Positions 1 to 11,834 of a stretch of DNA of 11,834 bases are shown here, piece by piece. This DNA is from Promethearchaeota archaeon (GTDB lineage: Archaea > Asgardarchaeota > Hermodarchaeia > Hermodarchaeales > Hermodarchaeaceae). Numbering within the stretch: position 1 is the stretch's first letter; each line of letters begins with the position of its first letter. The notes under the pieces were generated by a model. It was not told where the DNA came from. It was given only the letters and a program-made list of their open reading frames with translations, and did not search any database. The stretch spans positions 1 to 11,834 of the forward strand of contig JBHLMI010000046.1 in assembly GCA_048938295.1 (NCBI GenBank). Direction: 5' to 3'. The position numbers and the translations under genes were made by a program.

Positions 1-864
1 CTTTACTTGACGATTAAACTCGGTAAAGAAACCGTCGACCTTCTAATGGATCGCGCACCGTCGGATTTGACCGTTCCTATCCGGCAGGCGATTGAACAAA
101 TCGATGGCATCAAAGAGTGTAGCCGAATCCGACTGCGAAAAGCCGGACCAATGACCTTCGTCGATATTGTATGCCATGCCGAGCCAGCTATTCCCCTCCA
201 CACTGCACATGAGATTAGCGTCAATGCCCGAAAAACCGCAGAACAAATCATAGGTCGTGCCGATGTCGTCGTCCATATGGACCTCGTCTCAAAGCAGCAT
301 CCACACTTGGGTCAAACCATTCGAAAAGAAACGAAGAACTTCCCTTGGATCAAAGACCTCCAGGGCATCGACAGCTTCGAAACAGACGAGTACATCACCC
401 TTGTGTTAGAACTCCAGATTGACCCACAAATGAGACTCGACGAAGCCCATCACCTCGTTTCAAAATTTGAAACCCATATCCAATCACAATACCCTTTCAT
501 CAAAGAAATCACCACCCACCTTGAACCCAGCCGCGCTCCCACACCAACCACTCACGATCCTAAAACCATCGAAACCCAAATCATTGCACTCGTACACAAA
601 AGCCCACAACTACACAATTGCCATGACATCCAACTGATCCCCCTCTCAGAGAACCTCTACAACCTTACCTTCCACTGTGAAGCACCTCCAAGTTTCACAG
701 TCGAAGAACTCCACGCCGCAACCACCCTCCTCGAAGACGAAATCCGCGAACAACTCCCAATCTTCTCACAAATCATCATTCACAACGAACCACTAAAACG
801 CAAAACGAAGACCAAAAAGGATCAAAAAGAGAAGGAGATTCCTCCCAAAAAAACGAATACCTAA
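1..864 (+). CDS. Cation diffusion facilitator (FieF/CDF) family transporter, C-terminal part with three tandem ZT_dimer-like domains; 5' end outside the window
   Basis: Frame is open from base 1. End of the last TM helix (LYLTIKLGKETVDLLMD) is followed by three repeats of the CDF cytoplasmic pattern (R.RKAG..FVD...H..AH; LDEAHHLV...THLEP; LHNCHDI...IIIHNEP). The last 22 aa are a K-rich tail encoded by an actin relic. Confidence 0.85.
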   Translation, partial: LYLTIKLGKETVDLLMDRAPSDLTVPIRQAIEQIDGIKECSRIRLRKAGPMTFVDIVCHAEPAIPLHTAHEISVNARKTAEQIIGRADVVVHMDLVSKQHPHLGQTIRKETKNFPWIKDLQGIDSFETDEYITLVLELQIDPQMRLDEAHHLVSKFETHIQSQYPFIKEITTHLEPSRAPTPTTHDPKTIETQIIALVHKSPQLHNCHDIQLIPLSENLYNLTFHCEAPPSFTVEELHAATTLLEDEIREQLPIFSQIIIHNEPLKRKTKTKKDQKEKEIPPKKTNT

Positions 865-920
865 ATGCAGTGATGGATCACTCTAGCTCCTCACTCCATG
901 TCCTTATTTTTTAGTTACCT
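824..920 (-). repeat. Actin 3'-end relic R1 (strongly decayed)
   Basis: aaaaagagaaggagattcctcccaaaaaaacgaatac is followed by cta aat gca gtg atg gat cac tct agc tcc tca ctc cat. The minus strand reads M-E-*-G-A-R-V-I-H-H-C-I-* versus actin [12 protein letters not shown]. One hairpin arm (cctccc) and the spacer are retained, and agt tac (T,V) sits at 913-918. Confidence 0.7.
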
Positions 921-967
921 ACGTAAATCTGAAAGGTTAAAGAGGAAGCTTCCACCATTACCCACAA

Positions 968-1945
968 ATGCGGGTTTTATTAACCGGAGCCTTTGGAAAT
1001 ATCGGGGAAAGTACCCTATTAGCTCTATTTGAACAGAGCCATAAGATACGCTGCTTTGATTTACTCACAGCACAAAATGAGAAAACTGCCAAGAGACTGC
1101 TTAAGTATGGCGATTTTGACACTGTTTGGGGTGATGTTCGCGATGTCGACACCACTAGGAAGATCGTTGAGAACGTCGAATGTATCATCCATTTGGCGGC
1201 AATTCTTCCCCCTGTAAGCGAACGAGACGCTGAATTTACCAATGCCGTGAATGTTGGCGGCACAGCGCGGCTAATCGAAGCCGCAGAAACATTATCGGTA
1301 AAACCCAAATTCGTCTATGCTAGCTCCATATCAATATTTGGACCCACAATGCATCTTCCTCCACCAAGGACCGCGGAGGATCCCCTTAGTCCAACCGACG
1401 TCTATACCACCACGAAGGTCAAATGTGAAACGGCGCTCCGGGCGAGTACCCTTCCCTGGACCATCTTACGTTTGGCAGCTGTCCCTCCCATACGCATCGG
1501 TGGCGACATCGACCCGATGTTATTCGAAATGCCCCTTGACCAACGAATCGAATTTGTCCACACCCGCGATGTCGGCACAGCCTTTGCTAACGCTGTAACA
1601 GCCGACACCACGGGCAAGGTGCTCCTAATTGGAGGCGGGAAATCCAGTCAGATGCATCAACGCGAATTCATCGCCAAACCCCTTAACGCCATGGGAGTCG
1701 GAATGCTCCCTGAATCTGCCTTCCGCGTCGCCACGAAGCCTGAAGAGTGGTATTATACCGATTGGCTGGACACCACCGAATCCCAACACCTCTTGCAATA
1801 CCAAAACCACACCTTCGACGAATACGTCGACGACCTCAAAGACGCCATCGGATTCAAACGCTACTTCGCACGACTCTTCCGAGGTTTCGCCCAAAAACGC
1901 CTCCTCGCCCAATCACCCTACTACCAAGAACCGAAGAATTCCTAA
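968..1945 (+). CDS. NAD-dependent epimerase/dehydratase (extended SDR) family protein
   Basis: N-terminal Rossmann motif VLLTGAFGNIG, IIHLAA, NVGGT, YASSISIFG and catalytic YxxxK (YTTTK). Confidence 0.92.
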   Translation: MRVLLTGAFGNIGESTLLALFEQSHKIRCFDLLTAQNEKTAKRLLKYGDFDTVWGDVRDVDTTRKIVENVECIIHLAAILPPVSERDAEFTNAVNVGGTARLIEAAETLSVKPKFVYASSISIFGPTMHLPPPRTAEDPLSPTDVYTTTKVKCETALRASTLPWTILRLAAVPPIRIGGDIDPMLFEMPLDQRIEFVHTRDVGTAFANAVTADTTGKVLLIGGGKSSQMHQREFIAKPLNAMGVGMLPESAFRVATKPEEWYYTDWLDTTESQHLLQYQNHTFDEYVDDLKDAIGFKRYFARLFRGFAQKRLLAQSPYYQEPKNS

Positions 1946-2039
1946 ATAGGATTCCACTCACCATCCTAGGCTAAGCTTATCTGTACAACAAGAAGTATCA
2001 TGAAAGTCAGTAATGAATGGGATTACTCATTTCTGAAGG

Positions 2040-2750
2040 ATGGATAAGGTGACGCGTTGGTCACAACAAGAAATCAGCCAGTTAGCACCGATTTTAATGC
2101 AGATGGAGCAAGATCTGTACCCTCTTAACGAAAAACAAATTTGTGTTCTCTGTAGTGGATTTGGAGAACTCGTGTTTCGTCTGGATAAAAAAATGAGGCA
2201 AAAAGGAAAAATTATCGGACTTGAACGCAGCAGAAAAGCATTACAGCAAGCCAAAACCTTTGCAGCACAAAATCAATTTCGTGCTCAAAGTTCCTTTCAA
2301 TTAATAACTAAGAATAAACTCCCTTATGCGAACCACACCTTCGATGCCCTCGTCAGTGAATTTATTATCTATCCAACGCCACTTCCAACCGAAATTGGCC
2401 AGTTGGAGATGGCTCGCGTAGTAAAACCAGGTGGAACAATCCTTCTCACTGATGTTTTACGAACACACCCCATGTCTAAAAAGGAGACCCAGGCTCTCAA
2501 GCACATCGATATTCACTATCTTTGTGACGCTACATTTTCAGATTTTCAAACCTGGATGACAGCCGCAGGCCTCACTAACATTACAATTCGTGATTTTACA
2601 CCTTTATTGCAAACGATTTGGAGCCAACGGGCGGCAAAAAACACAGATAAGACCCACCGAGTGGGGTACAACCTCCTCCTTCACGATAACAAACTAAAAT
2701 TAGGTGAAGGCATTTTCTATATTTACGCCAAAGGCAATACACCCCCATAG
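2040..2750 (+). CDS. Class I SAM-dependent methyltransferase (Methyltransf_11/UbiE-like)
   Basis: Degenerate motif I (VLCSGFGEL), acidic post-I (IIGLE), LPYANHTFDALVSE, EMARVVKPGGTILLTD. Confidence 0.85.
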   Translation: MDKVTRWSQQEISQLAPILMQMEQDLYPLNEKQICVLCSGFGELVFRLDKKMRQKGKIIGLERSRKALQQAKTFAAQNQFRAQSSFQLITKNKLPYANHTFDALVSEFIIYPTPLPTEIGQLEMARVVKPGGTILLTDVLRTHPMSKKETQALKHIDIHYLCDATFSDFQTWMTAAGLTNITIRDFTPLLQTIWSQRAAKNTDKTHRVGYNLLLHDNKLKLGEGIFYIYAKGNTPP

Positions 2751-2808
2751 CCATCCGGTTTAATTCATAAGGTGAAACAGAATAGTATTGTATAGAGAGG
2801 CTGGGTTT

Positions 2809-3069
2809 ATGTCCGAACAAAGCATGAAAACACCCATTGGAAAAGTCACCAACTATTACTCAAAAATCAATGTAGCCGTCATCGAATTATCCGCCCCTTT
2901 GAAACAAGGTGACGAAATCGCCATCAAAGGCGCAACGACGGAGTTCACACAAACCGTGGAATCCATGCAAATCGAACGCAAAAACATTGAATCCTCACAA
3001 GCGGGTCAAGCCATCGGATTAAAAGTCAAAGAGCGAGTCCGAATAGGCGATACCGTCTACCGCATTTAG
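2809..3069 (+). CDS. Small translation-elongation-factor-like protein (EF-Tu domain II-like / U32 peptidase C-terminal-like beta-barrel)
   Basis: IGKVTNYYSKINVAVIELSAPLKQGDEIAIKG...VESMQIERKNIESSQAGQAIGLKV..RVRIGDTVY. ATG 2809 is preferred over the TTG at 2788. Confidence 0.8.
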   Translation: MSEQSMKTPIGKVTNYYSKINVAVIELSAPLKQGDEIAIKGATTEFTQTVESMQIERKNIESSQAGQAIGLKVKERVRIGDTVYRI

Positions 3070-3110
3070 TAAAACTAGCCCCCTGAGTTTCTAATCACAC
3101 CACTCAACCA

Positions 3111-3166
3111 AACAAAAAAAAGGAGGCCACGCGCCCCACCTGAAAACCGCGATGAAAGACAGTAGC
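3111..3166 (-). repeat. Actin 3'-end relic R2 (barely recognisable)
   Basis: A-tract plus ggagg half-hairpin, then ctg aaa acc gcg atg aaa gac agt agc. The minus strand reads A-T-V-F-H-R-G-F-Q versus actin A-G-V-I-H-R-C-F-* (5/9 identical). It occupies the expected intergenic position. Confidence 0.45.
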
Positions 3167-3232
3167 TCTGAGTGAATCTTTCTCTGCACGCTTGAAATTA
3201 ATAAAAACCCATACTAAAAAGAAGAGGCTGCA

Positions 3233-3988
3233 ATGATGTCTCAACGTGCCTTGGTACGTGAACCCGGAGCTCAATTTACTCACTGCATTTCTTCACACCC
3301 ATTACATCATACCGTCAATGTTGCTCGAGCACGAACACAACATTCAGAATACGTTAACATGTTAACTGAACTGGGGCTTGAAGTCATTCAGTTGCCTCGT
3401 GACGATACTTACCCAGATTCTTGTTTTGTTGAAGATACCGCTGTTATCCATTCTGGTAAAGCCCTCATAACCCGCCTTACCAAGCAGAGTCGTCGAGGCG
3501 AAGAAGATTCAGTTGAGGAACTACTTCAAGAGTATTTACCTGTGCAGCGCATCATGGCTCCAGGCACCCTCGAGGGAGGAGATGTGATTCGGTTACCCAC
3601 CCGAATAATCTGCGGGATTAGCCAGCGTACAAATCGTGCTGGCATGGAACAGATGCAGACTTATTTTGGCGTGCCTGTCGATACCATTACTGATCCACAC
3701 CTCATTCACCTGAAAAGTCATGTAACCTACCTGAACCATAACATCATGCTCACCACTCAGACCTACACACACCACCCAATCCTAGCTGACTTCGAAGTCC
3801 TCGTCGTCCCCGAAAACGAGCAATACGCAGCCAACACTCTCACCATCGACGACACCGTGATCATGCTTACCGGATACCCGCAAACCCAACAACTTATCAA
3901 AGACACAGGTTTCGAAGTTATCAGCCTAAATATAAGCGAAATCACCAAATGCGACGGCGCCCTAACCTGCCTATCACTCCTATTCTGA
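3233..3988 (+). CDS. Dimethylarginine dimethylaminohydrolase / amidinotransferase family protein
   Basis: PDSCFVED, LEGGDV, HLKS and C-terminal GALTCLS (catalytic Cys) motifs. Confidence 0.92.
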   Translation: MMSQRALVREPGAQFTHCISSHPLHHTVNVARARTQHSEYVNMLTELGLEVIQLPRDDTYPDSCFVEDTAVIHSGKALITRLTKQSRRGEEDSVEELLQEYLPVQRIMAPGTLEGGDVIRLPTRIICGISQRTNRAGMEQMQTYFGVPVDTITDPHLIHLKSHVTYLNHNIMLTTQTYTHHPILADFEVLVVPENEQYAANTLTIDDTVIMLTGYPQTQQLIKDTGFEVISLNISEITKCDGALTCLSLLF

Positions 3989-4014
3989 GCCGTTCGCATT
4001 CACACAGATAAACT

Positions 4015-4114
4015 AGAGAAAAAAGGGAGGATACGCCGCCCAAAAAAACGGTTACCGTAGAAGCCGCGAGGGATTACTCCAGCACCCTACTCCATACGCT
4101 CAATGCCGTAACCT
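4015..4114 (-). repeat. Actin 3'-end relic R3 (decayed)
   Basis: A-tract, imperfect hairpin gggagg-atacg-ccgccc, spacer aaaaaaacggttacc, then gta gaa gcc gcg agg gat tac tcc agc acc cta ctc cat. The minus strand reads M-E-*-G-A-G-V-I-P-R-G-F; cgt aac (T,V) sits at 4107-4112. Confidence 0.8.
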
Positions 4115-4180
4115 ACTAGGAATCTTCAAACACTCACTATTGGTTACAGCAAAAAGTTGACTGTGTTGATGTTATTAAAC

Positions 4181-4197
4181 ATTCAATTTGAATATAA
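4181..4197. promoter_or_regulatory. Inverted repeat ATTCAA-T-TTGAAT overlapping a TATA-like AATATAA upstream of acr3; candidate repressor operator/promoter
   Basis: Perfect 6-1-6 palindrome at 4181-4193, about 80 bp upstream of the ATG at 4271. Function is inferred. Confidence 0.35.
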
Positions 4198-4270
4198 GAC
4201 CAAAGAGTTGATATTTTCTTCTAATTCGGATAACCGTACTCGACTAGAATTCAAATACGGAATTAAAGCA

Positions 4271-5317
4271 ATGTCAAATAACAATGAAGCACCAGTTGTA
4301 ATGGGGCTTTTTGAGAAATATCTAACTTTTTGGATTCTTTCTTTTATGGCTCTAGGTTTGCTCGTTGGATGGCTCTTCCCCACATTCGCTATCACATTAG
4401 CTAGCCTGCAATTTGCAGGATTTTCAATTCCTATTGCGATTTGCCTTTTTTTCATGATGTTTCCAACCCTCATCAACATTGAGTACCGTGAAATCAAGTA
4501 CGCCGTGAAATATCCAAAACCCCTCATTATCACACTCGTAGCTAACTGGATAGTGAATCCCATCCTCGGTTTTGTGCTCGCCAGCACCATACTTGCAGCT
4601 AACCCACAATACGTATTCGGAATTATTCTACTTGCAGTATCACCGTGCACCGCAATGGTCCTCTTTTGGAATAAGTACGCCAAGGGCAACATCAATCTCG
4701 GATTGGTAATCACTTCCATTAACTCCATTCTCATCCTGTTCCTTTATGCACCCCTTGCCTCCTTCTTTATTGGCCTCTATGTTCCCGTACCCTTCATTAC
4801 TCTCCTAGTTGGCACTATGTTCTTCCTCGTCCTCCCCCTAATAACCGGGATTCTCACCAAACGTTATATCTACAAAACAAAAGGTCAAGAATGGTTTGCC
4901 AGATCCTTCAAGCCCATTCTTGACAAAATTGCCATCTTTGCTCTCCTTCTCACACTCGTCGTTCTCTTTTCCTTCCAAGGCCAAGTCATCCTCACCCAAC
5001 CGCTGAATGTCCTCTGGATCAGCAGTGTTCTCTTACTAAACTATGTTATCATGTTCACCTCCGTGTTTGTCATCTGCTACAAACTCGGATTTACCTACAA
5101 ACAAACCGTCACCGTCACAATCATCTCCAGCAGCTCACATTTTGAAATCGCCATAGCCACCGCCATCCTCCTCTTTGGCCCAGGATCCGCCGCCGCATTC
5201 GCCACCGTCATCGGCGTCCTCTGGGAAGTTCCACTCATGGTCGCCTTCATCAAACTCGCCCTCAGACTACAACCAAAGCTTTGGAAACCCCCAGCATCAA
5301 GTCCTCCGAACCCCTAA
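4271..5317 (+). CDS. acr3: ACR3 family arsenite efflux transporter
   Basis: FEKYLTFWI, IPIAICLFFMMFP, LVANW, GIILLAVSPCTAMVLFW, SSSHFEIAIATA, IGVLWEVPLM. ATG 4271 is preferred because the ORF-track extension from 4157 is not protein-like. Confidence 0.93.
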   Translation: MSNNNEAPVVMGLFEKYLTFWILSFMALGLLVGWLFPTFAITLASLQFAGFSIPIAICLFFMMFPTLINIEYREIKYAVKYPKPLIITLVANWIVNPILGFVLASTILAANPQYVFGIILLAVSPCTAMVLFWNKYAKGNINLGLVITSINSILILFLYAPLASFFIGLYVPVPFITLLVGTMFFLVLPLITGILTKRYIYKTKGQEWFARSFKPILDKIAIFALLLTLVVLFSFQGQVILTQPLNVLWISSVLLLNYVIMFTSVFVICYKLGFTYKQTVTVTIISSSSHFEIAIATAILLFGPGSAAAFATVIGVLWEVPLMVAFIKLALRLQPKLWKPPASSPPNP

Positions 5318-5333
5318 TCCCATTCACCCAACT

Positions 5334-5373
5334 AAAAAAAGAGAAAGGGGAGGCCAAGCCTCCCAAAGTTACT
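5334..5373 (-). terminator. Actin-type terminator: left (terminator/spacer) half of split relic R4, now terminating the 5369-5686 gene
   Basis: aaaaaaagagaaaggggaggccaagcctcccaaagttactt matches the actin A-tract, hairpin and spacer (gttactt versus gctactt in R6) but no actin codons follow. Confidence 0.8.
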
Positions 5374-5686
5374 TGAGGTCACTCACATCAATACCCGGTC
5401 GGAGTAATCGAATACTGATATCATCGAGAAGCCCGGAAGAAATGGCCATCATTTTTTGCACGTCCGCATTTCCATAGAACTTTGCGAACTTCTCCATGCT
5501 CTCAAAGGGGATCCAATACATGATTCGCCCAGTATTGTCCGCCCAAAACGTTACGTCAGGACTAATCAATCCCTTTTTCAGCCATTCCTCTGTTTTCCCA
5601 CCCAGCTTCTCTTGCCAATCTAACAGTTGTTTCCCTCGAACCTCATCCTTAGGTGTACGATACTCAACACACAAGACGCATTTCAA
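5369..5686 (-). CDS. Hypothetical protein (~105 aa)
   Basis: Open frame. A perfect Shine-Dalgarno GGAGGTGA (plus strand tcacctcc, 5692-5699) lies 5 nt before a TTG at 5686, giving MKCVLCVEYRTPKDE... The stop lies inside the relic spacer. Confidence 0.7.
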   Translation of the reverse strand: MKCVLCVEYRTPKDEVRGKQLLDWQEKLGGKTEEWLKKGLISPDVTFWADNTGRIMYWIPFESMEKFAKFYGNADVQKMMAISSGLLDDISIRLLRPGIDVSDLK

Positions 5687-5882
5687 TGATCTCACCTCCA
5701 TTCCAGTAACCATCGAAGTGAAAAAGCCCATGCAGGTAGAGTAACTGATGCCATTCGGCCCTCCAAAGGCTAGCCACCCTTATGACAAATATAGTATTTA
5801 TATCCGAGGTTTTACGAATTTCCACCCGACAAAAACCCAGAGGCTGCAGAAGTCAGGCCACAGCATTTCCTTAACACAACCA

Positions 5883-5937
5883 CTAGGGAAGCACCGATGA
5901 ATCACATCAGCACTCTGCCCCATGTATCATGTAACCC
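5883..5937 (-). repeat. Right (coding) half of split actin relic R4
   Basis: cta gg gaa gca ccg atg aat cac atc agc act ctg ccc cat gta ... tgt aac cc. The minus strand reads Y-M-G-Q-S-A-D-V-I-H-R-C-F. No hairpin is adjacent. Confidence 0.8.
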
Positions 5938-5996
5938 TCGTTGACCTGCGTAATTTTATATCCACCAAGTGTGTAGAACACCTGAGGAAGAGCAGA

Positions 5997-6443
5997 ATGG
6001 CCACAGCAGGTTATGCCCGATATGAAATCGAAGGTCACATCGAAGAAGTCATCAATGTTTTGGAGCCACAATTTGGCGACTCCTTCACCCGAACCTATGA
6101 ACATAATGGACGATGCGTCCTTGCCATCCTCCTCACCGATCAATACGCATTTCTAACCAACAGCCACGTTGCTGTCACAATCATCCTTCGAACCCACGAT
6201 TACCTAGTCATCATGGACGTCATCGGCTACGGCGGTAGCAGCGGATTGATAGGCCTCGACTGGGGAAGCAACAAAAGCATCGTCCACGACGTTCACAGAC
6301 ACCTAACTAAACATGGCTTCAAAATCACTCGCACCCAGTTCACCGAACTCTCCAAACACCATGACCATCGCATAAAACAGTACCCACGAACCGAACCCAT
6401 CCTCGCAAATGACCCAGACTACTTCGAACCGCCAATCGATTAG
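5997..6443 (+). CDS. Hypothetical protein, DUF6054-like
   Basis: The segment VAVTIIL...MDVIGYGGSSGLIGLDWGSNKSIV recalls the GG..G.F..DWGAE motif of DUF6054 (from memory, not searched). The start may be ATG 5997 or ATG 5922, which lies inside relic R4. Confidence 0.6.
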   Translation: MATAGYARYEIEGHIEEVINVLEPQFGDSFTRTYEHNGRCVLAILLTDQYAFLTNSHVAVTIILRTHDYLVIMDVIGYGGSSGLIGLDWGSNKSIVHDVHRHLTKHGFKITRTQFTELSKHHDHRIKQYPRTEPILANDPDYFEPPID

Positions 6444-6551
6444 CAAAATGGTAAATCGTCGAGAATATTCAATAGACCCAAAATTACCATTAGCACAGAA
6501 ACATGCTCGACTCAGAAAAAAAGCAGAACAATTCAAACAAAAAAGAACGCG

Positions 6552-6658
6552 AAAAAAGAATGAAAGGGGAGGCAAGCCTCCCAAAAAAATCGACTACTTT
6601 AGAAGCACCGATGAATAACATCAGCACCCTAGTCCAGGTATTCTTTCTTCGTAACCCA
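6552..6658 (-). repeat. Actin 3'-end relic R5 (type A UTR, internal nonsense codon)
   Basis: A-tract, perfect hairpin gggagg-caag-cctccc, stop at 6599-6601. The minus strand reads W-V-T-K-K-E-Y-L-D-*-G-A-D-V-I-H-R-C-F-*. Confidence 0.95.
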
Positions 6659-6744
6659 CTTCACTGTCGTATTTATCTACGGAAGTTGTTGAGTTTAGAC
6701 CACCAACTAAGCATAGTACCTCACCAAGAATTGTTGGAGCTAAA

Positions 6745-7203
6745 TCAGTGAGAACGAACAAAGGGAACATAATCAGTCATAGGCACTTCTCTCCCTAACG
6801 TCCGTAATGCCAAGACTAACTGTCCACGATGGTAGGTCGCATGATTTACCAAATGAAACACAAACTCCACCACCGATATTGAACGCCCCTGCCCTACCTC
6901 CACAACACCCTCAGAACCCAACTTCTTAAAATATCGCCTCCATCGCTGCTGCATCTCCTCAACCACACCAATAATCATGTTCACACTCATCGCAGAAAAC
7001 TCCGGTTCGTCCCAATCCTCACCGGACACATCCACCAACCACTCCCAATAATCATAGGCCAAATGGACACAAATATCACGGATACTCCGCGAATAAGCGC
7101 CCAACGGAGCAACACACTCCTCCTCCGAAACCTCAACCACCACACCAAAAACCACCTTGTCAGCCCAACTCAAGTATTCAAACAGTCGATCTACACACTC
7201 CAT
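6745..7203 (-). CDS. DinB/YfiT-like family protein
   Basis: SIRDICVHL and HLVNHATYHRGQ His triad, LRTLGREVPMTDY C-terminus. ATG 7203 is preceded by GGGTGGT. Confidence 0.88.
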   Translation of the reverse strand: MECVDRLFEYLSWADKVVFGVVVEVSEEECVAPLGAYSRSIRDICVHLAYDYWEWLVDVSGEDWDEPEFSAMSVNMIIGVVEEMQQRWRRYFKKLGSEGVVEVGQGRSISVVEFVFHLVNHATYHRGQLVLALRTLGREVPMTDYVPFVRSH

Positions 7204-7279
7204 AGACTTACCACCCAAACATCAAACCAATACAACCACCTACCACCCACAATAAATAAAAAATCAGGCTAAACCCCTA

Positions 7280-7387
7280 GAAAAGAGAAAAAAGGGAGGA
7301 CAAGCCTCCCAAAAATTCGGCTACTTAGAAGCAGCGATGAATTACGCCAGCACCCTGCTCCTTGTACTCCTTTTTGGTCACCCACAA
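7280..7387 (-). repeat. Actin 3'-end relic R6 (type A UTR, intact reading frame)
   Basis: A-tract, hairpin gggagg-acaag-cctccc, stop at 7325-7327. The minus strand reads [20 protein letters not shown], with 9 synonymous and 2 non-synonymous codon differences from actin. Confidence 0.97.
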
Positions 7388-7394
7388 CCATTTT

Positions 7395-8180
7395 TTAGGA
7401 AATCCGTTTGAGGAAATCTAAAACCACGGTATAAAATAGCTCACATCGTTTGTCTACATAATTCATGTGTGTCATATCGGGGATGATGGCTAATTCTGCC
7501 TGGGGTATCAAGCTAAGCATTTCGATCTGAGTTTCAAGGGGAACCGCTTCATCTTTATCCCCCACAATGAGGAGCGTAGGCACCTCAATCTTTGTAATAT
7601 CGTCCTGCGGATAGTTCGATGGATCCCTCCACATTTGAAGCTGCTTGTTAACGAAGATTTCCAAATACTCAGACCCGTAGACGTGACTATGCACAGCCCT
7701 CAAAGTCTTCTTAAGTTCTGGTTGGGAGTCAAGCCATTGGGGAACTGACAAAAGACCCTCCCGCGTCTTTTGTGTCAATTCATGCATTCCCCCACCCACA
7801 ACGAGGGCCGTAATGAAGTGAGGATACCGGATACCAATTTCTAACGCTATTTGCCCGCCATCACTCCAGCCACCGATAATCGGATTCACCAGATCTAAAG
7901 CCTTGGCTAACGCCACAACATCATCGGCCATGACTCGATAATTCATTAAGTCCTGGGGATTATCCGTGCGACCACACCCTCGACAATCCGGAGTAATTAC
8001 GCGAAAATGCTCTGCGAATCGCTTCCTAAGATCCCCCCACCCCAGACTCCCTGTAAGCAACCCACCATGGACCAGAATCAACGGAATCCCCTTGCCCCGA
8101 TCCTCATAATACATACGAAGCCCATTCGCATCCACATAGTGCCCAAACTCAGGTAACACCTTCAGCTCATCGTTCTTCAT
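7395..8180 (-). CDS. Alpha/beta fold hydrolase
   Basis: VHGG oxyanion motif, PDCRGCGRT, nucleophile elbow GWSDGG, GDKDE acid, THM His. SD-like GAGGTG before the ATG. Confidence 0.92.
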   Translation of the reverse strand: MKNDELKVLPEFGHYVDANGLRMYYEDRGKGIPLILVHGGLLTGSLGWGDLRKRFAEHFRVITPDCRGCGRTDNPQDLMNYRVMADDVVALAKALDLVNPIIGGWSDGGQIALEIGIRYPHFITALVVGGGMHELTQKTREGLLSVPQWLDSQPELKKTLRAVHSHVYGSEYLEIFVNKQLQMWRDPSNYPQDDITKIEVPTLLIVGDKDEAVPLETQIEMLSLIPQAELAIIPDMTHMNYVDKRCELFYTVVLDFLKRIS

Positions 8181-8321
8181 GTCAACACCTCGTAACCATT
8201 AAAGATCCCAGCCACTAAAAGGTTAGCCAGTAAGCCACCCAATAGATCCTTCTCTACCACTCAAACTTAGGCACATGAAACTAAGGGAAAAAGCAGAATA
8301 AATCGCACAACAAAGAGAACG

Positions 8322-8422
8322 AAAAAAAGAGAAAGAGGGGGAGGCACAGCCTCCCAATAATTGAAGACCGTTTAGAAGCAGCGATGAATAACACCAGCGC
8401 CCTGTTCCATGTATACTTTTTT
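8322..8422 (-). repeat. Actin 3'-end relic R7 (type B UTR)
   Basis: A-tract, hairpin gggaggc-aca-gcctccc, spacer aataattgaagaccgt, stop at 8372-8374. The minus strand reads [16 protein letters not shown]. Confidence 0.97.
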
Positions 8423-8590
8423 ACAAACCGAGTATATGCTTGAGATCATCACGGCACTTTTCGTTTAGCGAGAATGCCTAGCCTCTCCAGAATGTAATTA
8501 ACAGGCCTAGCTCTATGGCCTCCAGTAGTTTTCTTAGAGAATAATTGAGAAGATTAATAATCCACGTTCTCAACTCTATCTGTGATTGAA

Positions 8591-8878
8591 ATGACTCTCA
8601 AAACAAAACAGGCGAAACCAGCTCCAAGCAGCCCTGCCACTGCCATTATCCTAATTGAAGTCTTACCCAAAGAACATCTCAACGTCTTACATATCGTTAA
8701 ACAAGACCTTGAAAAAATTGAAGGCGTCAAAGATGTGTGCGGTATTTTTGGCACCTGGGACCTATCAGCCATCATCGAAGAAGAGACTTATGAATCCCTC
8801 AAAAACAAAGTCATCGACGAGGTACGCGCCGTGCCTGGCGTTGGCAAAACTGAAACGCTCCTCCGATTTCCACTCTAA
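8591..8878 (+). CDS. Lrp/AsnC ligand-binding (RAM) domain protein, no HTH
   Basis: TAIILIEV.P...LEKIEGVKDVCGIFGTWDLSAIIE...VIDEVRAVPGVGKTETL. Start is ATG 8591 (GTG 8582 is an alternative). Confidence 0.88.
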   Translation: MTLKTKQAKPAPSSPATAIILIEVLPKEHLNVLHIVKQDLEKIEGVKDVCGIFGTWDLSAIIEEETYESLKNKVIDEVRAVPGVGKTETLLRFPL

Positions 8879-8967
8879 CATTGACTCAAAACAGCGAAAT
8901 ACTATCCTTAAGGATGACTTCAACAACCATCAATAGAAGAACTATGCAGTGAATGAAAACATCCATT

Positions 8968-9063
8968 AGAAAAAAGAAAAAGGGGAGGCACAGCCTCCCA
9001 ATAGGTGAAGACCGTTTAGAAGCACCGGTGATTAACGCCAGCGCCCTGCTCCATATTTTTCTT
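8968..9063 (-). repeat. Actin 3'-end relic R8 (type B UTR)
   Basis: A-tract, hairpin gggaggc-aca-gcctccc, spacer aataggtgaagaccgt, stop at 9016-9018. The minus strand reads M-E-Q-G-A-G-V-N-H-R-C-F-*, with an apparent 3-nt deletion in the preceding codons. Confidence 0.95.
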
Positions 9064-9142
9064 CCCGCTTACACCAATGGATTATTATAAGAAATTAAAG
9101 AGCAAATGTTGCTATGAATCCCAGAATGGTTGGTGAAACCCA

Positions 9143-9538
9143 ATGAAGCAAAGTGCAGGAAGAATCACTCGTCTTTGGCTCGGTATGGTCGAAGTCTCGG
9201 ATCTAGACAAAGCCCTCCAATTTTACCATGAGGTTCTTGGCCTACCCATAGCACTCGACGCAAGAATGTTTGATCACGCCGAAGTTGGCCCCGAAGAACC
9301 GTTAGCAAAAATCGGCCTATATGCTAGTGGTAAAAAAGCAGAGAAAATACGCCGAACAGGCATTGTCTTGGATACCGATGACATCAACGCCCTATACAAT
9401 AGACTAACCCGACACGGAGTAAAATTTACCACAAAGCCGACTAAGATGCCATGGGGCGGCATATCCGCAAAATTCCTCGACCCCGACAACAACGAATTCG
9501 AGGTCGTGCAAGACCCCCACCATTACTCACGAAAATAA
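9143..9538 (+). CDS. VOC family (glyoxalase/bleomycin resistance) protein
   Basis: VSDLDKALQFYHEVLGL, IVLDTDDINALY..L...GVKF...P..MPWGG....FLDPDNNEFEV. Confidence 0.93.
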   Translation: MKQSAGRITRLWLGMVEVSDLDKALQFYHEVLGLPIALDARMFDHAEVGPEEPLAKIGLYASGKKAEKIRRTGIVLDTDDINALYNRLTRHGVKFTTKPTKMPWGGISAKFLDPDNNEFEVVQDPHHYSRK

Positions 9539-9553
9539 AACACCAACAACACC

Positions 9554-9657
9554 AAAAAAAGAGAAAGAGGGGGAGGCACAGCCTACCAATAAGTGAAGAC
9601 CGTCTAGAAGCAGCGGTGGATCACGCTAGCGCCCCGTTCCATGTATTCTTTCTTTGT
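9554..9657 (-). repeat. Actin 3'-end relic R9 (type B UTR), nearest to actin
   Basis: A-tract, hairpin with one mismatch (gcctacc), spacer aataagtgaagaccgt, TAG stop at 9604-9606. The minus strand reads T-K-K-E-Y-M-E-R-G-A-S-V-I-H-R-C-F-*. Confidence 0.97.
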
Positions 9658-9839
9658 AGCTACTGGTCAACTGGTGTTTGGTTTTAATCACCTTTTCCAG
9701 AGAACCATAACGCATAAAAGTAAACCAAATTCGGCGCTCCGCCAGAGGTGACCCCATCATAAAAATCGATTATGAAAAACTATCAACCTACCTCACCGAA
9801 GACGAACTAGATCAACTCGATGCCGCAACGTATCATGTC

Positions 9840-10202
9840 ATGCGCTTCAAATGGCTCGCCGACGACTGCACCACCTGGGACGACATAATCCACGCCCTGC
9901 ACCACCGAATCACCGCCATTGAAGACCTCAAAGCCCAAGGCGCAATCTTAGCCCAAAACAACAACGACGACTACATCTTCTATGAAATCCCCGGCGAAAC
10001 CGCCATCTTCGCCACCCTCACCACCCTCACTGACACTGAGTGCACCTTCCAACTCGACGATGGTGCCACCATCACCACCCCACGACCCGACTGGACCGAC
10101 TTCACACACGACCACCTCCACTGCCGCCTTGTCCTCCTCATCACCGAAACCGGCGAACTCAACGGCGTCTCCCTTCCCCACCACGTCCCGAGCGACCCAT
10201 AA
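9840..10202 (+). CDS. Hypothetical protein, translationally coupled to the downstream endonuclease gene
   Basis: 120-aa ORF whose stop overlaps the next ATG (TAATG, 10200-10204). The frame stays open upstream to 9711 with a protein-like sequence (KIDYEKLSTYLTEDELDQLD). Confidence 0.7.
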   Translation: MRFKWLADDCTTWDDIIHALHHRITAIEDLKAQGAILAQNNNDDYIFYEIPGETAIFATLTTLTDTECTFQLDDGATITTPRPDWTDFTHDHLHCRLVLLITETGELNGVSLPHHVPSDP

Positions 10203-11335
10203 TGATCACCGGCACACCCTACTTTCCTAAAAAATGTCCAACTTGTCCGATTTACCGCCTTCGCCAAACTACCCAGCCTGGCACTAAAGCCACCTATCAA
10301 CGCAAATTTGACATCACAACCGAACTCCAAATCGTCTGCGACTACACCTGCAAAGAAAAAAGCAGCCTCCAACTTGCGCAAGAAAAAGACTGCACCCAAG
10401 ACACCATCCAAAACATCGTCCGCAGATTCAATAAACCCCTCCGCTCTTTCCGCGACGCCCAACTCCTCCGCCGCGGATCCAAAGACCTCACCTTCCCCCT
10501 CTCACCCGAAGTCCCCCAGCTCCTCCAACACCCTAAGGTAAAGCCCTTTCTACCGCAATTAATAGCTGTCATGCTCCTCACCGACGGTGTCGCCGGCTAC
10601 CGCCAAGGTCACCGCCCTTACCTTACCTTCACCAATAAAGCGGAAACCCTCCACGCCATCTTCGCCGACCTCATCCACTTCCACTACAACCAACCCCCAT
10701 CCGCCTACTTCAAAAAATACTGGAGCAGAGCAAAGAAACAAGGTTCCTGTGCCTTCTACACTACCTATAACCGCATAGCCGACACACATCCCATCCTTAA
10801 CGAACTCCTTACACTCAGCCCCACATATCGGACACAACCCAAACTCGGACAATCATGGGAAAACTACCTCCAGCAAACCCCACAACCCACACTCCAATTC
10901 TTATCAAACCCAACCATACCTACACAAATTCACAACTTCGTAATCCAACTAGGCATGAGCGCCGAAGGTTCCATTAGCCCCATCTTTGTGTCAGATAGTC
11001 GATTCCCTTATCCACATCTAACATTGGGCTGCAAACATCCATTACTCAAAGAACAATGGAAAACATATCTCGAAATCCAAGGCTTTTCATTCAACAAAAC
11101 CACCGAAATGATTGAAACCGCACAACTCCAGCAAGCGAAGAAATTCCTCAATCTTGGTGGTTTTTTCAACGGTGTAAAAGTGAAAGCTGGCAGTTATTAT
11201 GAAGGACTCGACAAACAAGCCGTCTTAAAAGCAATACTCATTGACAGAAAAACCCATCCAATCGACCCAGCACTTCTAAAACAGGAAAAACATAAAATCT
11301 TACGCCAACGAGCATTACAATTCAAAAAATCCTAA
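10202..11335 (+). CDS. Free-standing double-motif LAGLIDADG (homing/intein-type) endonuclease-like protein with N-terminal CxxC and HTH
   Basis: Motif 1 LIAVMLLTDG (10559-10588) and motif 2 VIQLGMSAEG (10940-10969) both keep the acidic residue. HTH-like IVCDYTCKEKSSLQLAQEKDCTQDTIQNIVRRFNKPLRS and CPTC lie upstream. Start is set at ATG 10202 (377 aa) by the TAATG coupling. Confidence 0.75.
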   Translation: MITGTPYFPKKCPTCPIYRLRQTTQPGTKATYQRKFDITTELQIVCDYTCKEKSSLQLAQEKDCTQDTIQNIVRRFNKPLRSFRDAQLLRRGSKDLTFPLSPEVPQLLQHPKVKPFLPQLIAVMLLTDGVAGYRQGHRPYLTFTNKAETLHAIFADLIHFHYNQPPSAYFKKYWSRAKKQGSCAFYTTYNRIADTHPILNELLTLSPTYRTQPKLGQSWENYLQQTPQPTLQFLSNPTIPTQIHNFVIQLGMSAEGSISPIFVSDSRFPYPHLTLGCKHPLLKEQWKTYLEIQGFSFNKTTEMIETAQLQQAKKFLNLGGFFNGVKVKAGSYYEGLDKQAVLKAILIDRKTHPIDPALLKQEKHKILRQRALQFKKS

Positions 11336-11350
11336 TCTCCACTCACACGA

Positions 11351-11399
11351 AATAAAAAAAATGAAAAAGGGGAGGCAAGCCTCCCAAAAATCAGCTACC
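11351..11399 (-). terminator. Actin 3' UTR and terminator: hairpin GGGAGG-CUUG-CCUCCC followed by U-tracts (type A UTR)
   Basis: Plus strand gggagg caag cctccc at 11370-11385, flanked by A-runs at 11351-11368 (U-tract on the minus strand), 14 nt after the actin stop. Confidence 0.85.
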
Positions 11400-11834
11400 T
11401 TAGAAGCACCGATGAATAACACCAGCGCCCTGTTCCATGTATTCTTTCTTTGTCACCCACATTCGCTGAAACGTCTTTAGAGAGGCTAGGATGCTGCCGC
11501 CGATCCAGACGGAGTACATGCGTTCGGGTGGGGCGACGATTTTGACTTCGACGTTTTCGGGGATGGATTCGATGATTTCTTTGCGGAGGCGTTCTTTGAG
11601 TCCGGGGAACATGGTGGTGCCGCCGGAGAGGACGATGTTCGCGTAGAGGTCGCGGCGGAGGTCGACGTCGCATTTGTGGACGGCTTCGACGATGGCGTCG
11701 TCGAGGGGTTGGGCTTCGATGCCGATGGCGCCGGGGTTGAATAGGACTTCGGGTCCCTGGAAGCGTTCGGCGCCGACGGTGAGGGTGGAGCCGTCGGGGA
11801 GCATGTATTTCTTTTCCATGCCGGCGACTTTTTC
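11400..11834 (-). CDS. Eukaryote-like actin (Asgard/lokiactin-like), C-terminal ~145 codons; 5' part outside the window
   Basis: [67 protein letters not shown], terminal HRCF. High GC with C-ending codons is consistent with high expression. The prokaryotic gene neighbourhood argues for an archaeon. Confidence 0.95.

Follow-up and report, generated by a model that had tools for sequence, protein, structure and literature searches.

The window analyzed here, the whole of an 11,834-nucleotide (nt) contig from an Asgard metagenome-assembled genome (MAG), carries beside the 3' end of its actin gene an open reading frame (ORF), P0001, for which we propose the identity of a free-standing, single-chain, two-domain LAGLIDADG homing endonuclease encoded in neither an intron nor an intein. 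The enzyme represents a new family without a curated profile, of the already known LAGLIDADG type, and in one Asgard genus, we propose, members of this family have established themselves in the 3' flank of actin, an essential gene. An array of copied actin ends and accessory genes stands behind it, and remnants of older endonuclease genes within that array suggest that repeated invasions may have helped to pile up these duplicated ends together with their cargo.

The endonuclease and its linkage to actin

Neither P0001 nor P0150 has a match in Pfam or NCBIfam. A HMMER scan recovered 136 representative homologs of P0001, whose common core spans residues ~117-346; among 50 aligned homologs, 23 match PF14528 (LAGLIDADG_3; best E 2e-11) and 3 match PF14527 (LAGLIDADG_WhiA), and the best match of the family profile to Protein Data Bank (PDB) sequences is a weak one to I-Tsp061I (E 1.6). 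The AlphaFold2 (AF2) model of P0001, built from the homolog alignment, reaches a predicted local distance difference test (pLDDT) score of 92.9, and its strong Foldseek matches are all LAGLIDADG endonucleases, maturases or WhiA. The acidic residue that is penultimate in each LAGLIDADG motif defines catalysis and binds metal (PMC3384342). In 50 family sequences, residue 128 (D128 in P0001) is an aspartate 49 times and a glutamate once, residue 255 (E255) a glutamate 31 times and an aspartate 19 times, and the adjoining G129 and G256 are invariant. Given the LAGLIDADG fold and these conserved acidic residues, we classified P0001 as a single-chain LAGLIDADG enzyme with an N-terminal helix-turn-helix (HTH) region and predict from its sequence that it is probably catalytically competent. 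The initial annotation, made from the letters alone, had described an HTH joined to a double LAGLIDADG domain with both acidic residues intact, a description that the AF2 fold, the homolog profile matches and the acidic residues kept in 50/50 members bear out.

By sequence position, with no superposition, K146 (in TFTNK; compare ITQK in I-DmoI) falls at a place like that of I-DmoI K43 and is kept in 31/50 homologs; the equivalent of I-DmoI K130 in the second domain, sought likewise by sequence position, yields K278 in 10/50, C277 in 50/50 and H279 in 44/50, and this domain conserves C277-x-H279. The HTH region has phmmer matches to multi-HTH proteins, homologs match HTH_28, HTH_23 and CENP-B_N at the equivalent place, and this homeodomain-like module probably adds DNA-site recognition. 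Orthologs of P0001 also keep C12-x2-C15 and C46-x3-C50.

P0001 is a separate ORF with its own start, lying between host genes, and a like layout recurs in 10 further loci. Close homologs (54-80% identity) come from Asgard assemblies only, and wherever the DNA was readable (loci L001-L004 and genomes G052 and G122) a family member lies convergent with and adjacent to the actin 3' end; two further metagenome contigs show the same gene layout. The first slot after the real actin tail (slot 1) holds a family member, at 22-90% identity, in 11 of 12 loci of one genus, namely, the window, L001-L004, L009, L010, L089-L091 and G043, with L088 as the twelfth. The occupant in G043, a 408-aa ORF only 22% identical, gave no match to P0001 itself; hhalign places it in the family with a probability of 99.8, and it has LLTEG and GTEG motifs. 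Metagenome contigs were also sampled independently of the endonuclease, by scanning them for peptides identical to the real actin tail; of the 4 contigs hit, 3 carry a family member in slot 1.

Across a sample of 301 Asgard genomes, orthologs are confined to genus g1, and so are sets of at least four actin-tail copies; the other genomes have one to three full-length actin paralogs. A sister-genus genome has the same hairpin terminator and T-run after actin and contains neither endonuclease nor relic. In keeping with the checks that the initial annotation had set, homologs are linked to actin and no relative was seen to have an array without the gene; both features are confined to a single genus, whose genomes are close kin, so that their co-occurrence counts as one evolutionary event. 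None of the metagenome contigs with homologs of 30-37% identity shows actin, and these contigs are too short to judge.

The genome of the window (G000) has no P0001 paralog, the gene being single copy. PF14528 matches were seen at 18 places in this genome (e.g., C59:2197-2439 and C47:29642-29809), inside open frames of 650-1,690 aa; these are presumably intein endonucleases, which would make the genome rich in classical LAGLIDADG elements.

The actin-proximal part of the window is laid out as follows:

10202..11335, plus strand: endonuclease gene P0001, 377 aa, from the ORF and its translation, homologs, the AF2 model and LAGLIDADG fold matches
10310..10480, plus strand: N-terminal HTH region, residues ~37-93, from AF2 helices H38-49, H55-61 and H66-75 and HTH matches
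10541..10588, plus strand: first LAGLIDADG helix, residues 114-129 (...LIAVMLLTDG), from model helix H114-127, then a strand
10922..10969, plus strand: second LAGLIDADG helix, residues 241-256 (...VIQLGMSAEG), from model helix H241-255, then a strand
9840..10202, plus strand: ORF120, 120 aa, upstream companion gene, from 64-76% identical copies in relatives
11336..11399, no strand: spacer between the convergent stops, 64 bp, comprising the actin terminator and part of the repeat unit
11400..11834, minus strand: C-terminal 144 codons of actin plus the stop, from the ORF, PF00022 on homologous genes and tblastn

The coordinates, the 64-bp spacing and the convergent orientation relative to actin had been given correctly at the outset, as the ORF call and the sequence confirm: the stop codon of P0001 (TAA, 11333-11335) faces that of actin on the minus strand (11400-11402). 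The codons of D128 and E255 are at 10583-10585 and 10964-10966. P0001 had also been called the only DNA-acting enzyme in the window, and among the ORFs read or scanned there is no second nuclease or recombinase. The ATG of P0001 overlaps the TAA of ORF120 (TAATG). ORF120 copies lie directly upstream of the endonuclease gene in L002, L009 and L010 and are absent from L001, L003 and L004, which makes ORF120 the companion gene of one sub-lineage; its model (pLDDT 71.5) consists of a helix and a small beta-barrel, with weak OB-like matches (E ~0.1) and no fold match at E <= 0.001. The spacer contains a CCACTCAC motif (11339-11346), the hairpin GGGAGGC-AA-GCCTCCC (11370-11385) and an A-run that is a T-run on the actin strand. 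In one endonuclease lineage (P0010; L003:9195-9214; P0007, P0008 and P0012) the ORF is 390-395 aa long and overlaps the last actin codons by ~20 nt, reading the antisense of the actin terminator hairpin. Transfer RNA genes, an alternative integration anchor, were found neither in the window nor in seven loci.

The plus strand of positions 1-11400 is strongly C- and A-rich, most so at 10001-11000, where the GC skew reaches -0.49, at the 99.9th percentile when 2,486 genomic windows of 1 kb are ranked. At third codon positions the plus strand is C-rich regardless of gene strand (in the DinB and hydrolase genes, G greatly exceeds C at third positions of the sense strand). The skew of actin itself is the opposite, and the endonuclease genes of L003 and G043 are unskewed.

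The actin-tail array and the turnover of its units

The relic array invoked by the initial annotation is real: by tblastn, nhmmer and DNA alignment, the window has roughly nine copies of a ~105-nt unit, all on the minus strand, and seven other genomes have arrays of a comparable kind. The unit comprises the last 19 actin codons (at 11403-11459 in the gene itself, the portion copied in the relics), the stop codon, a spacer, the hairpin GGGAGGC..GCCTCCC and the T-run, and the TTGAGTGG motif is also present in about half of the copies. A genome-wide search located the repeat only on the contig of the window. Since the endonuclease-free genome of the sister genus has this terminator after its actin gene, the repeat derives from the native actin end. 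The relic that closes slot 1 and the two older endonuclease remnants of the window are listed here:

9551..9660, minus strand: first actin-tail relic, with type-B 3' untranslated region (UTR), forming the distal border of slot 1, from tblastn, nhmmer and DNA alignment
8233..8382, plus strand: 3' stump of an older endonuclease gene, from tblastn (E 8e-13 and E 2e-19), 72-74% to P0010 residues 345-393
6448..6570, plus strand: 3' stump of another older endonuclease gene, from tblastn (E 3e-9 and E 5e-20), 73% to the P0007 C terminus

Slot 1 of the window holds ORF120 and the endonuclease gene. Of the 74 repeat copies that 12 loci provide, 45 have their start no more than ~10 nt away from the M/W codons, and the end lies at the T-run in 27 and at the TTGAGTGG motif in 25. 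The initial annotation had suggested cleavage near the WVTKK codons, with synonymous tail variants as possible resistant alleles; repeat starts do cluster at these codons, but the ends of any conserved site would do the same. Four half relics stop right after the GAGV codons and are followed by unrelated DNA, and three of these four, consisting of the 5' half of the tail only, form the distal edge of slot 1 (L001, L002 and L003). Some cassettes are common to several genomes, their order differing. Contigs from four runs of one sediment study carry the locus with variant joints inside the repeats (5365 to 9606 via a different spacer; 8999 back to 7323), which involve cargo-only cassettes, and the type-B spacer attached to the real actin stop was also seen; array content therefore differs between co-existing strains. 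The variants that these contigs reveal are at strain level, and nothing in them is informative about endonuclease activity. A "skip" joint of 630 nt, spanning ORF120 and the first part of the endonuclease gene, is anchored on one side by just 30 nt, and its source may be another strain. The idea that the repeats are retro-copies of the 3' end of actin mRNA was dropped, since they run past the T-run into the endonuclease 3' end and the TTGAGTGG motif.

A small ORF of 99-120 aa, belonging to no family, was observed on the actin strand at the actin stop or terminator (window 5334-5937, L088:389-1002 and L055:3452-4037). In two of these contexts, the window and L055, a relic is interrupted by it at the stop codon; the L088 copy comes after the real tail and terminator and has a terminator-only repeat behind it. 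This ORF may be a separate small element that targets the actin-end site.

The endonuclease gene is under purifying selection, with ratios of nonsynonymous to synonymous substitution (dN/dS) of 0.16-0.26, and its products share 55-80% amino acid identity, compared to 97-99% for actin and 86% for the neighbour on the other side of actin in the same genomes. Deeper in the arrays, older endonuclease genes have left their final 40-58 codons in at least five internal relics, where each remnant runs directly into the terminator and tail relic. The window stumps at 8233-8382 and 6448-6570 are thus contiguous with relics at 8304-8428 and 6551-6666, and further stumps lie at 5419-5596 and ~6578-6725 in L001 and at 1538-1696 in L004. 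In contrast to these 3' stumps, no 5' endonuclease fragments were found in the arrays. The stumps belong to lineages other than that of the resident gene; the window pair resembles P0007 and P0010, not P0001, and the 8233 stump sits on the type-B 3' UTR, as found on the real tails of the P0007/P0010 lineages. This implies that units of endonuclease and tail were repeatedly pushed into the array and replaced by units of other lineages.

In the actin gene, the last 70-96 codons show excess divergence that is mosaic and pair-specific. Using partitions that were chosen after seeing the data, we counted 64/855 differing nt in the first 285 codons versus 56/288 nt in the last 96 codons between G060 and L003 (p 9e-8), 9/216 nt in the 5' part versus 42/216 nt in the 3' part between the window and L003 (p 8e-7), and 61/927 nt versus 38/216 nt between L003 and G122 (p 3e-6), while the pair G060 and G122 was flat (69/855 nt versus 31/288 nt, p 0.18). 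The co-conversion of flanking DNA that the initial annotation had cited for homing endonucleases fits this pattern, which matches the prediction of conversion tracts of variable length; any recombination process could give it. Stumps and mosaic actin end together record DNA exchange between related Asgard lineages.

These data bear on two other views of the gene. The first, which the initial annotation had kept as its fallback, is that the endonuclease gene is ordinary cargo and the latest cassette by chance: it does have a tail copy on each side, as the other cassettes have. We regard this as very improbable, since the gene occupies the same slot in all but one of the loci while the other cassettes vary in content and order, and purifying selection and the deeper 3' stumps likewise speak against it. 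The second is that a domesticated LAGLIDADG protein, either a WhiA-like regulator or an HO-like host nuclease, sits beside actin and is no longer mobile, which would suit the WhiA-like fold and the fixed position. WhiA, however, does not cut DNA and is without the motif acidic residues (PMC3384342), the metal ligands that all 50 members keep, and in WhiA/DUF199 the LAGLIDADG part is followed by a C-terminal HTH, whereas the HTH of P0001 is N-terminal. Furthermore, identities of 22-80% within one genus contrast with the near identity of actin, stumps of other lineages denote replacement and not stable inheritance, and the family is absent from the sister genus. Domestication therefore appears improbable, if less so than chance cargo.

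Several observations concern the actin genes of relatives. In G043, of the same genus, a 28-nt insert precedes the ERMYSVW codons (L051:14920-14975, minus strand) and folds into a bulge-helix-bulge (BHB) made up of a GCGC/GCGC helix, an AAA bulge, a 4-bp CACC/GGUG helix, an AGA bulge and a UGC/GCG helix; cleavage two bases into each bulge exactly restores CCA GAG CGC AUG (APPERMY). This insert, from which the window's own actin is free, would be a tRNA-type mini-intron in actin and, lying within the possible endonuclease region, could also break a DNA target. A second G043 insert of ~30 nt (L051:14830-14870, minus strand), at the M|W junction of the actin tail, contains an in-frame stop and is flanked by CAGCG repeats; unremoved, it would make actin end in ...KTFQRIWN. 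Its minimum-energy fold is not a BHB, and possible origins are a scar left at the junction, variation between strains or a chimeric assembly. In G033, of the sister genus, the actin frame is broken near residue 45 (L081:2946-3300), with two overlapping ORFs, ~60 nt extra and no clear BHB in the fold. Finally, actin is split across contig ends in most MAGs of the genus, as in G000 (C9:53207-53737 plus 11403-11834 of C18, the window), and is broken at contig ends also in G011, G043, G060, G067 and G091, which fits strain heterogeneity or locus repeats confusing assemblers.

How the array may have been built

The explanation that we favour, and to which we assign a probability close to but short of even, is homing-endonuclease-driven stacking at the actin 3' flank. 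The mobile unit would run from the final ~19 codons of actin through the terminator to the endonuclease gene, and would take in any upstream cargo gene that moves along with it. Where a genome has a different variant or none, the enzyme would cleave it within or close to the 3' end of actin, and the break would be repaired from incoming DNA of a related lineage. On the donor, a second tail, a relic, would lie past the endonuclease gene, and there the distal end could pair and repair could resolve, so that donor tail, endonuclease and cargo would be placed before the recipient's old tail, which would become a relic. Repeated rounds by diverging variants would then stack units at the actin-proximal end, and superseded endonuclease genes would decay to 3' stumps. 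Such a mechanism would account for (i) the intact actin gene, (ii) the newest unit beside actin, (iii) relics that start near one place, (iv) the stumps, and (v) the mosaic actin end. In this explanation we infer cleavage, a target site, and a role of the enzyme as the cause and not a mere companion of these events.

A more ambitious form of this explanation, which we consider rather unlikely, holds that the locus performs integrase-free gene capture, in which the break made by the endonuclease would combine with the ~105-nt actin tail and terminator serving as a portable homology arm. Any gene lying between two tail copies could then be copied into, or lost from, the array, and the whole might be a functional analogue of an integron, assembled from a homing endonuclease and homologous recombination.

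Several points weigh against stacking by the endonuclease: (i) the majority of cassettes are without an endonuclease stump; (ii) in L088 (1,175 nt) a cassette with a 99-aa ORF follows the real tail and terminator, and no endonuclease appears in the 850 nt visible; (iii) no empty recipient allele occurs within the genus among the genomes that could be examined, because each of these already carries a family member; (iv) the kinship of the genomes reduces the joint occurrence of endonuclease and array to the single event mentioned above, and the mosaic test has post hoc partitions; (v) distant family members, i.e., those of ~500 aa in G041, G050 and G058 (another Asgard family), one Hadarchaeota locus and two Aenigmatarchaeota loci, have no gene-end relic arrays nearby; (vi) if the target were part of the repeat, the 8-9 copies in the genome itself would be open to cutting as well; and (vii) G000 has at least two other oriented repeat families that bound gene blocks and only one member of the endonuclease family, so that a mechanism independent of this family probably exists in the lineage. 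The repeats concerned, on C66 (240-44747; core TTTCGAAGAC) and C32 (248-14711; core TACTCACAAA), were observed in seven copies each, are intergenic and are unrelated to the actin tail.

The chief rival to which these points lead is a selfish endonuclease that homes to the actin flank for its own spread and rides in an array built on the ~105-nt repeats by an unrelated recombination system. In addition to the other repeat families and the stump-free cassettes, this rival draws on the L088 cassette, which sits between actin and whatever follows, on the variant joints within repeats and the cargo-only cassettes of the metagenome, and on two tyrosine recombinase genes elsewhere in the genome (PF00589 matches on C32 and C33). 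On the other hand, no recombinase gene lies in any array read, array and endonuclease were found only together and in the same genus, the stumps show that endonuclease and tail units were themselves stacked, and the repeat is the native actin end and not a dedicated folded site. On balance, we hold it to be a serious but unlikely alternative to endonuclease-driven stacking. The status of candidate motor that the initial annotation had given to the gene is therefore retained in part: linkage, purifying selection, stumps and mosaic end favour it circumstantially, and L088 and the other repeat-bounded arrays of the genome, which are without a family member, count against it.

Comparison with known systems and implications

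The closest parallels to endonuclease-driven stacking come from T-even phages, whose SegA-G and MobA-E endonucleases ("intronless homing"; PMC2988022) are likewise stand-alone genes between host genes and beside a conserved gene, with co-conversion-like mosaicism in flanking DNA. The free-standing SegB drives segmental amplification, in which a neighbouring gene recombines with the 3' portion of segB (PMC13096335), and the duplicated units described here similarly take in the 3' part of the endonuclease gene and the adjacent gene end. The phage enzymes, however, are of the GIY-YIG or HNH type, whereas the actin-linked enzyme is of the LAGLIDADG type and resides in a cellular archaeal chromosome; its duplicated units, unlike those of the phages, are parted by unrelated cargo genes and kept long-term. 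The archaeal LAGLIDADG enzymes I-DmoI, I-Tsp061I and PI-PfuI are encoded by introns or inteins, in contrast to P0001, which also differs in its extra N-terminal HTH, its lack of a Pfam match of its own and the ~125 residues between its two LAGLIDADG motifs.

HO, the endonuclease that acts with the mating-type cassettes of yeast, is a LAGLIDADG-derived enzyme with an added DNA-binding module, and the cut that it makes is repaired from cassettes sharing short flanking homology. P0001 and its array resemble it in the added module and in cassettes with short shared flanks, but HO switches between two fixed silent cassettes, whereas here the cassettes are unrelated genes and the coding sequence of the expressed gene stays unchanged. 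Oriented short-repeat arrays that part cassettes of one to few genes are likewise formed by integrons and by the tandem islands that integrases make where tRNA or protein genes end, and because the repeat is a copy of the 3' end of the gene, actin stays intact here, as genes do in integrase-made islands. Unlike integrons, the actin-tail arrays that were read neither contain nor adjoin a tyrosine or serine recombinase gene (there is no PF00589 match on the array contig, the two matches of the genome being those on C32 and C33), and their repeat is a coding tail plus terminator and not a folded site of the attC type. In the orphan C-terminal arrays of Rhs/CdiA, displaced 3' gene ends and cargo accumulate downstream of a functional gene. 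Those displaced ends differ from one another (toxin tips) and their cargo consists of immunity genes, whereas the actin ends are near-identical and their cargo is miscellaneous. Aloposons (PMC8813620) were considered as well and proved unrelated to the actin-tail arrays.

To conclude, none of the papers that our literature search turned up describes an actin-linked LAGLIDADG gene, in Asgard archaea or otherwise, or an array of actin tails, and a system driven by this enzyme, if real, would be new. Homing endonucleases are usually regarded as selfish passengers of introns and inteins. In the present case, a free-standing LAGLIDADG family without a profile accompanies the 3' end of actin, the cytoskeletal gene that is the hallmark of Asgard archaea, and takes the first place in an array composed of displaced actin ends and accessory genes. 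If true, endonuclease-driven stacking would extend to archaea the recent finding made in phages that a free-standing endonuclease drives segmental amplification, and the enzyme would be a naturally occurring one whose long target lies within a conserved gene. A selfish nuclease would then, if it does make the breaks, have built a lasting gene-capture site in a cellular chromosome.

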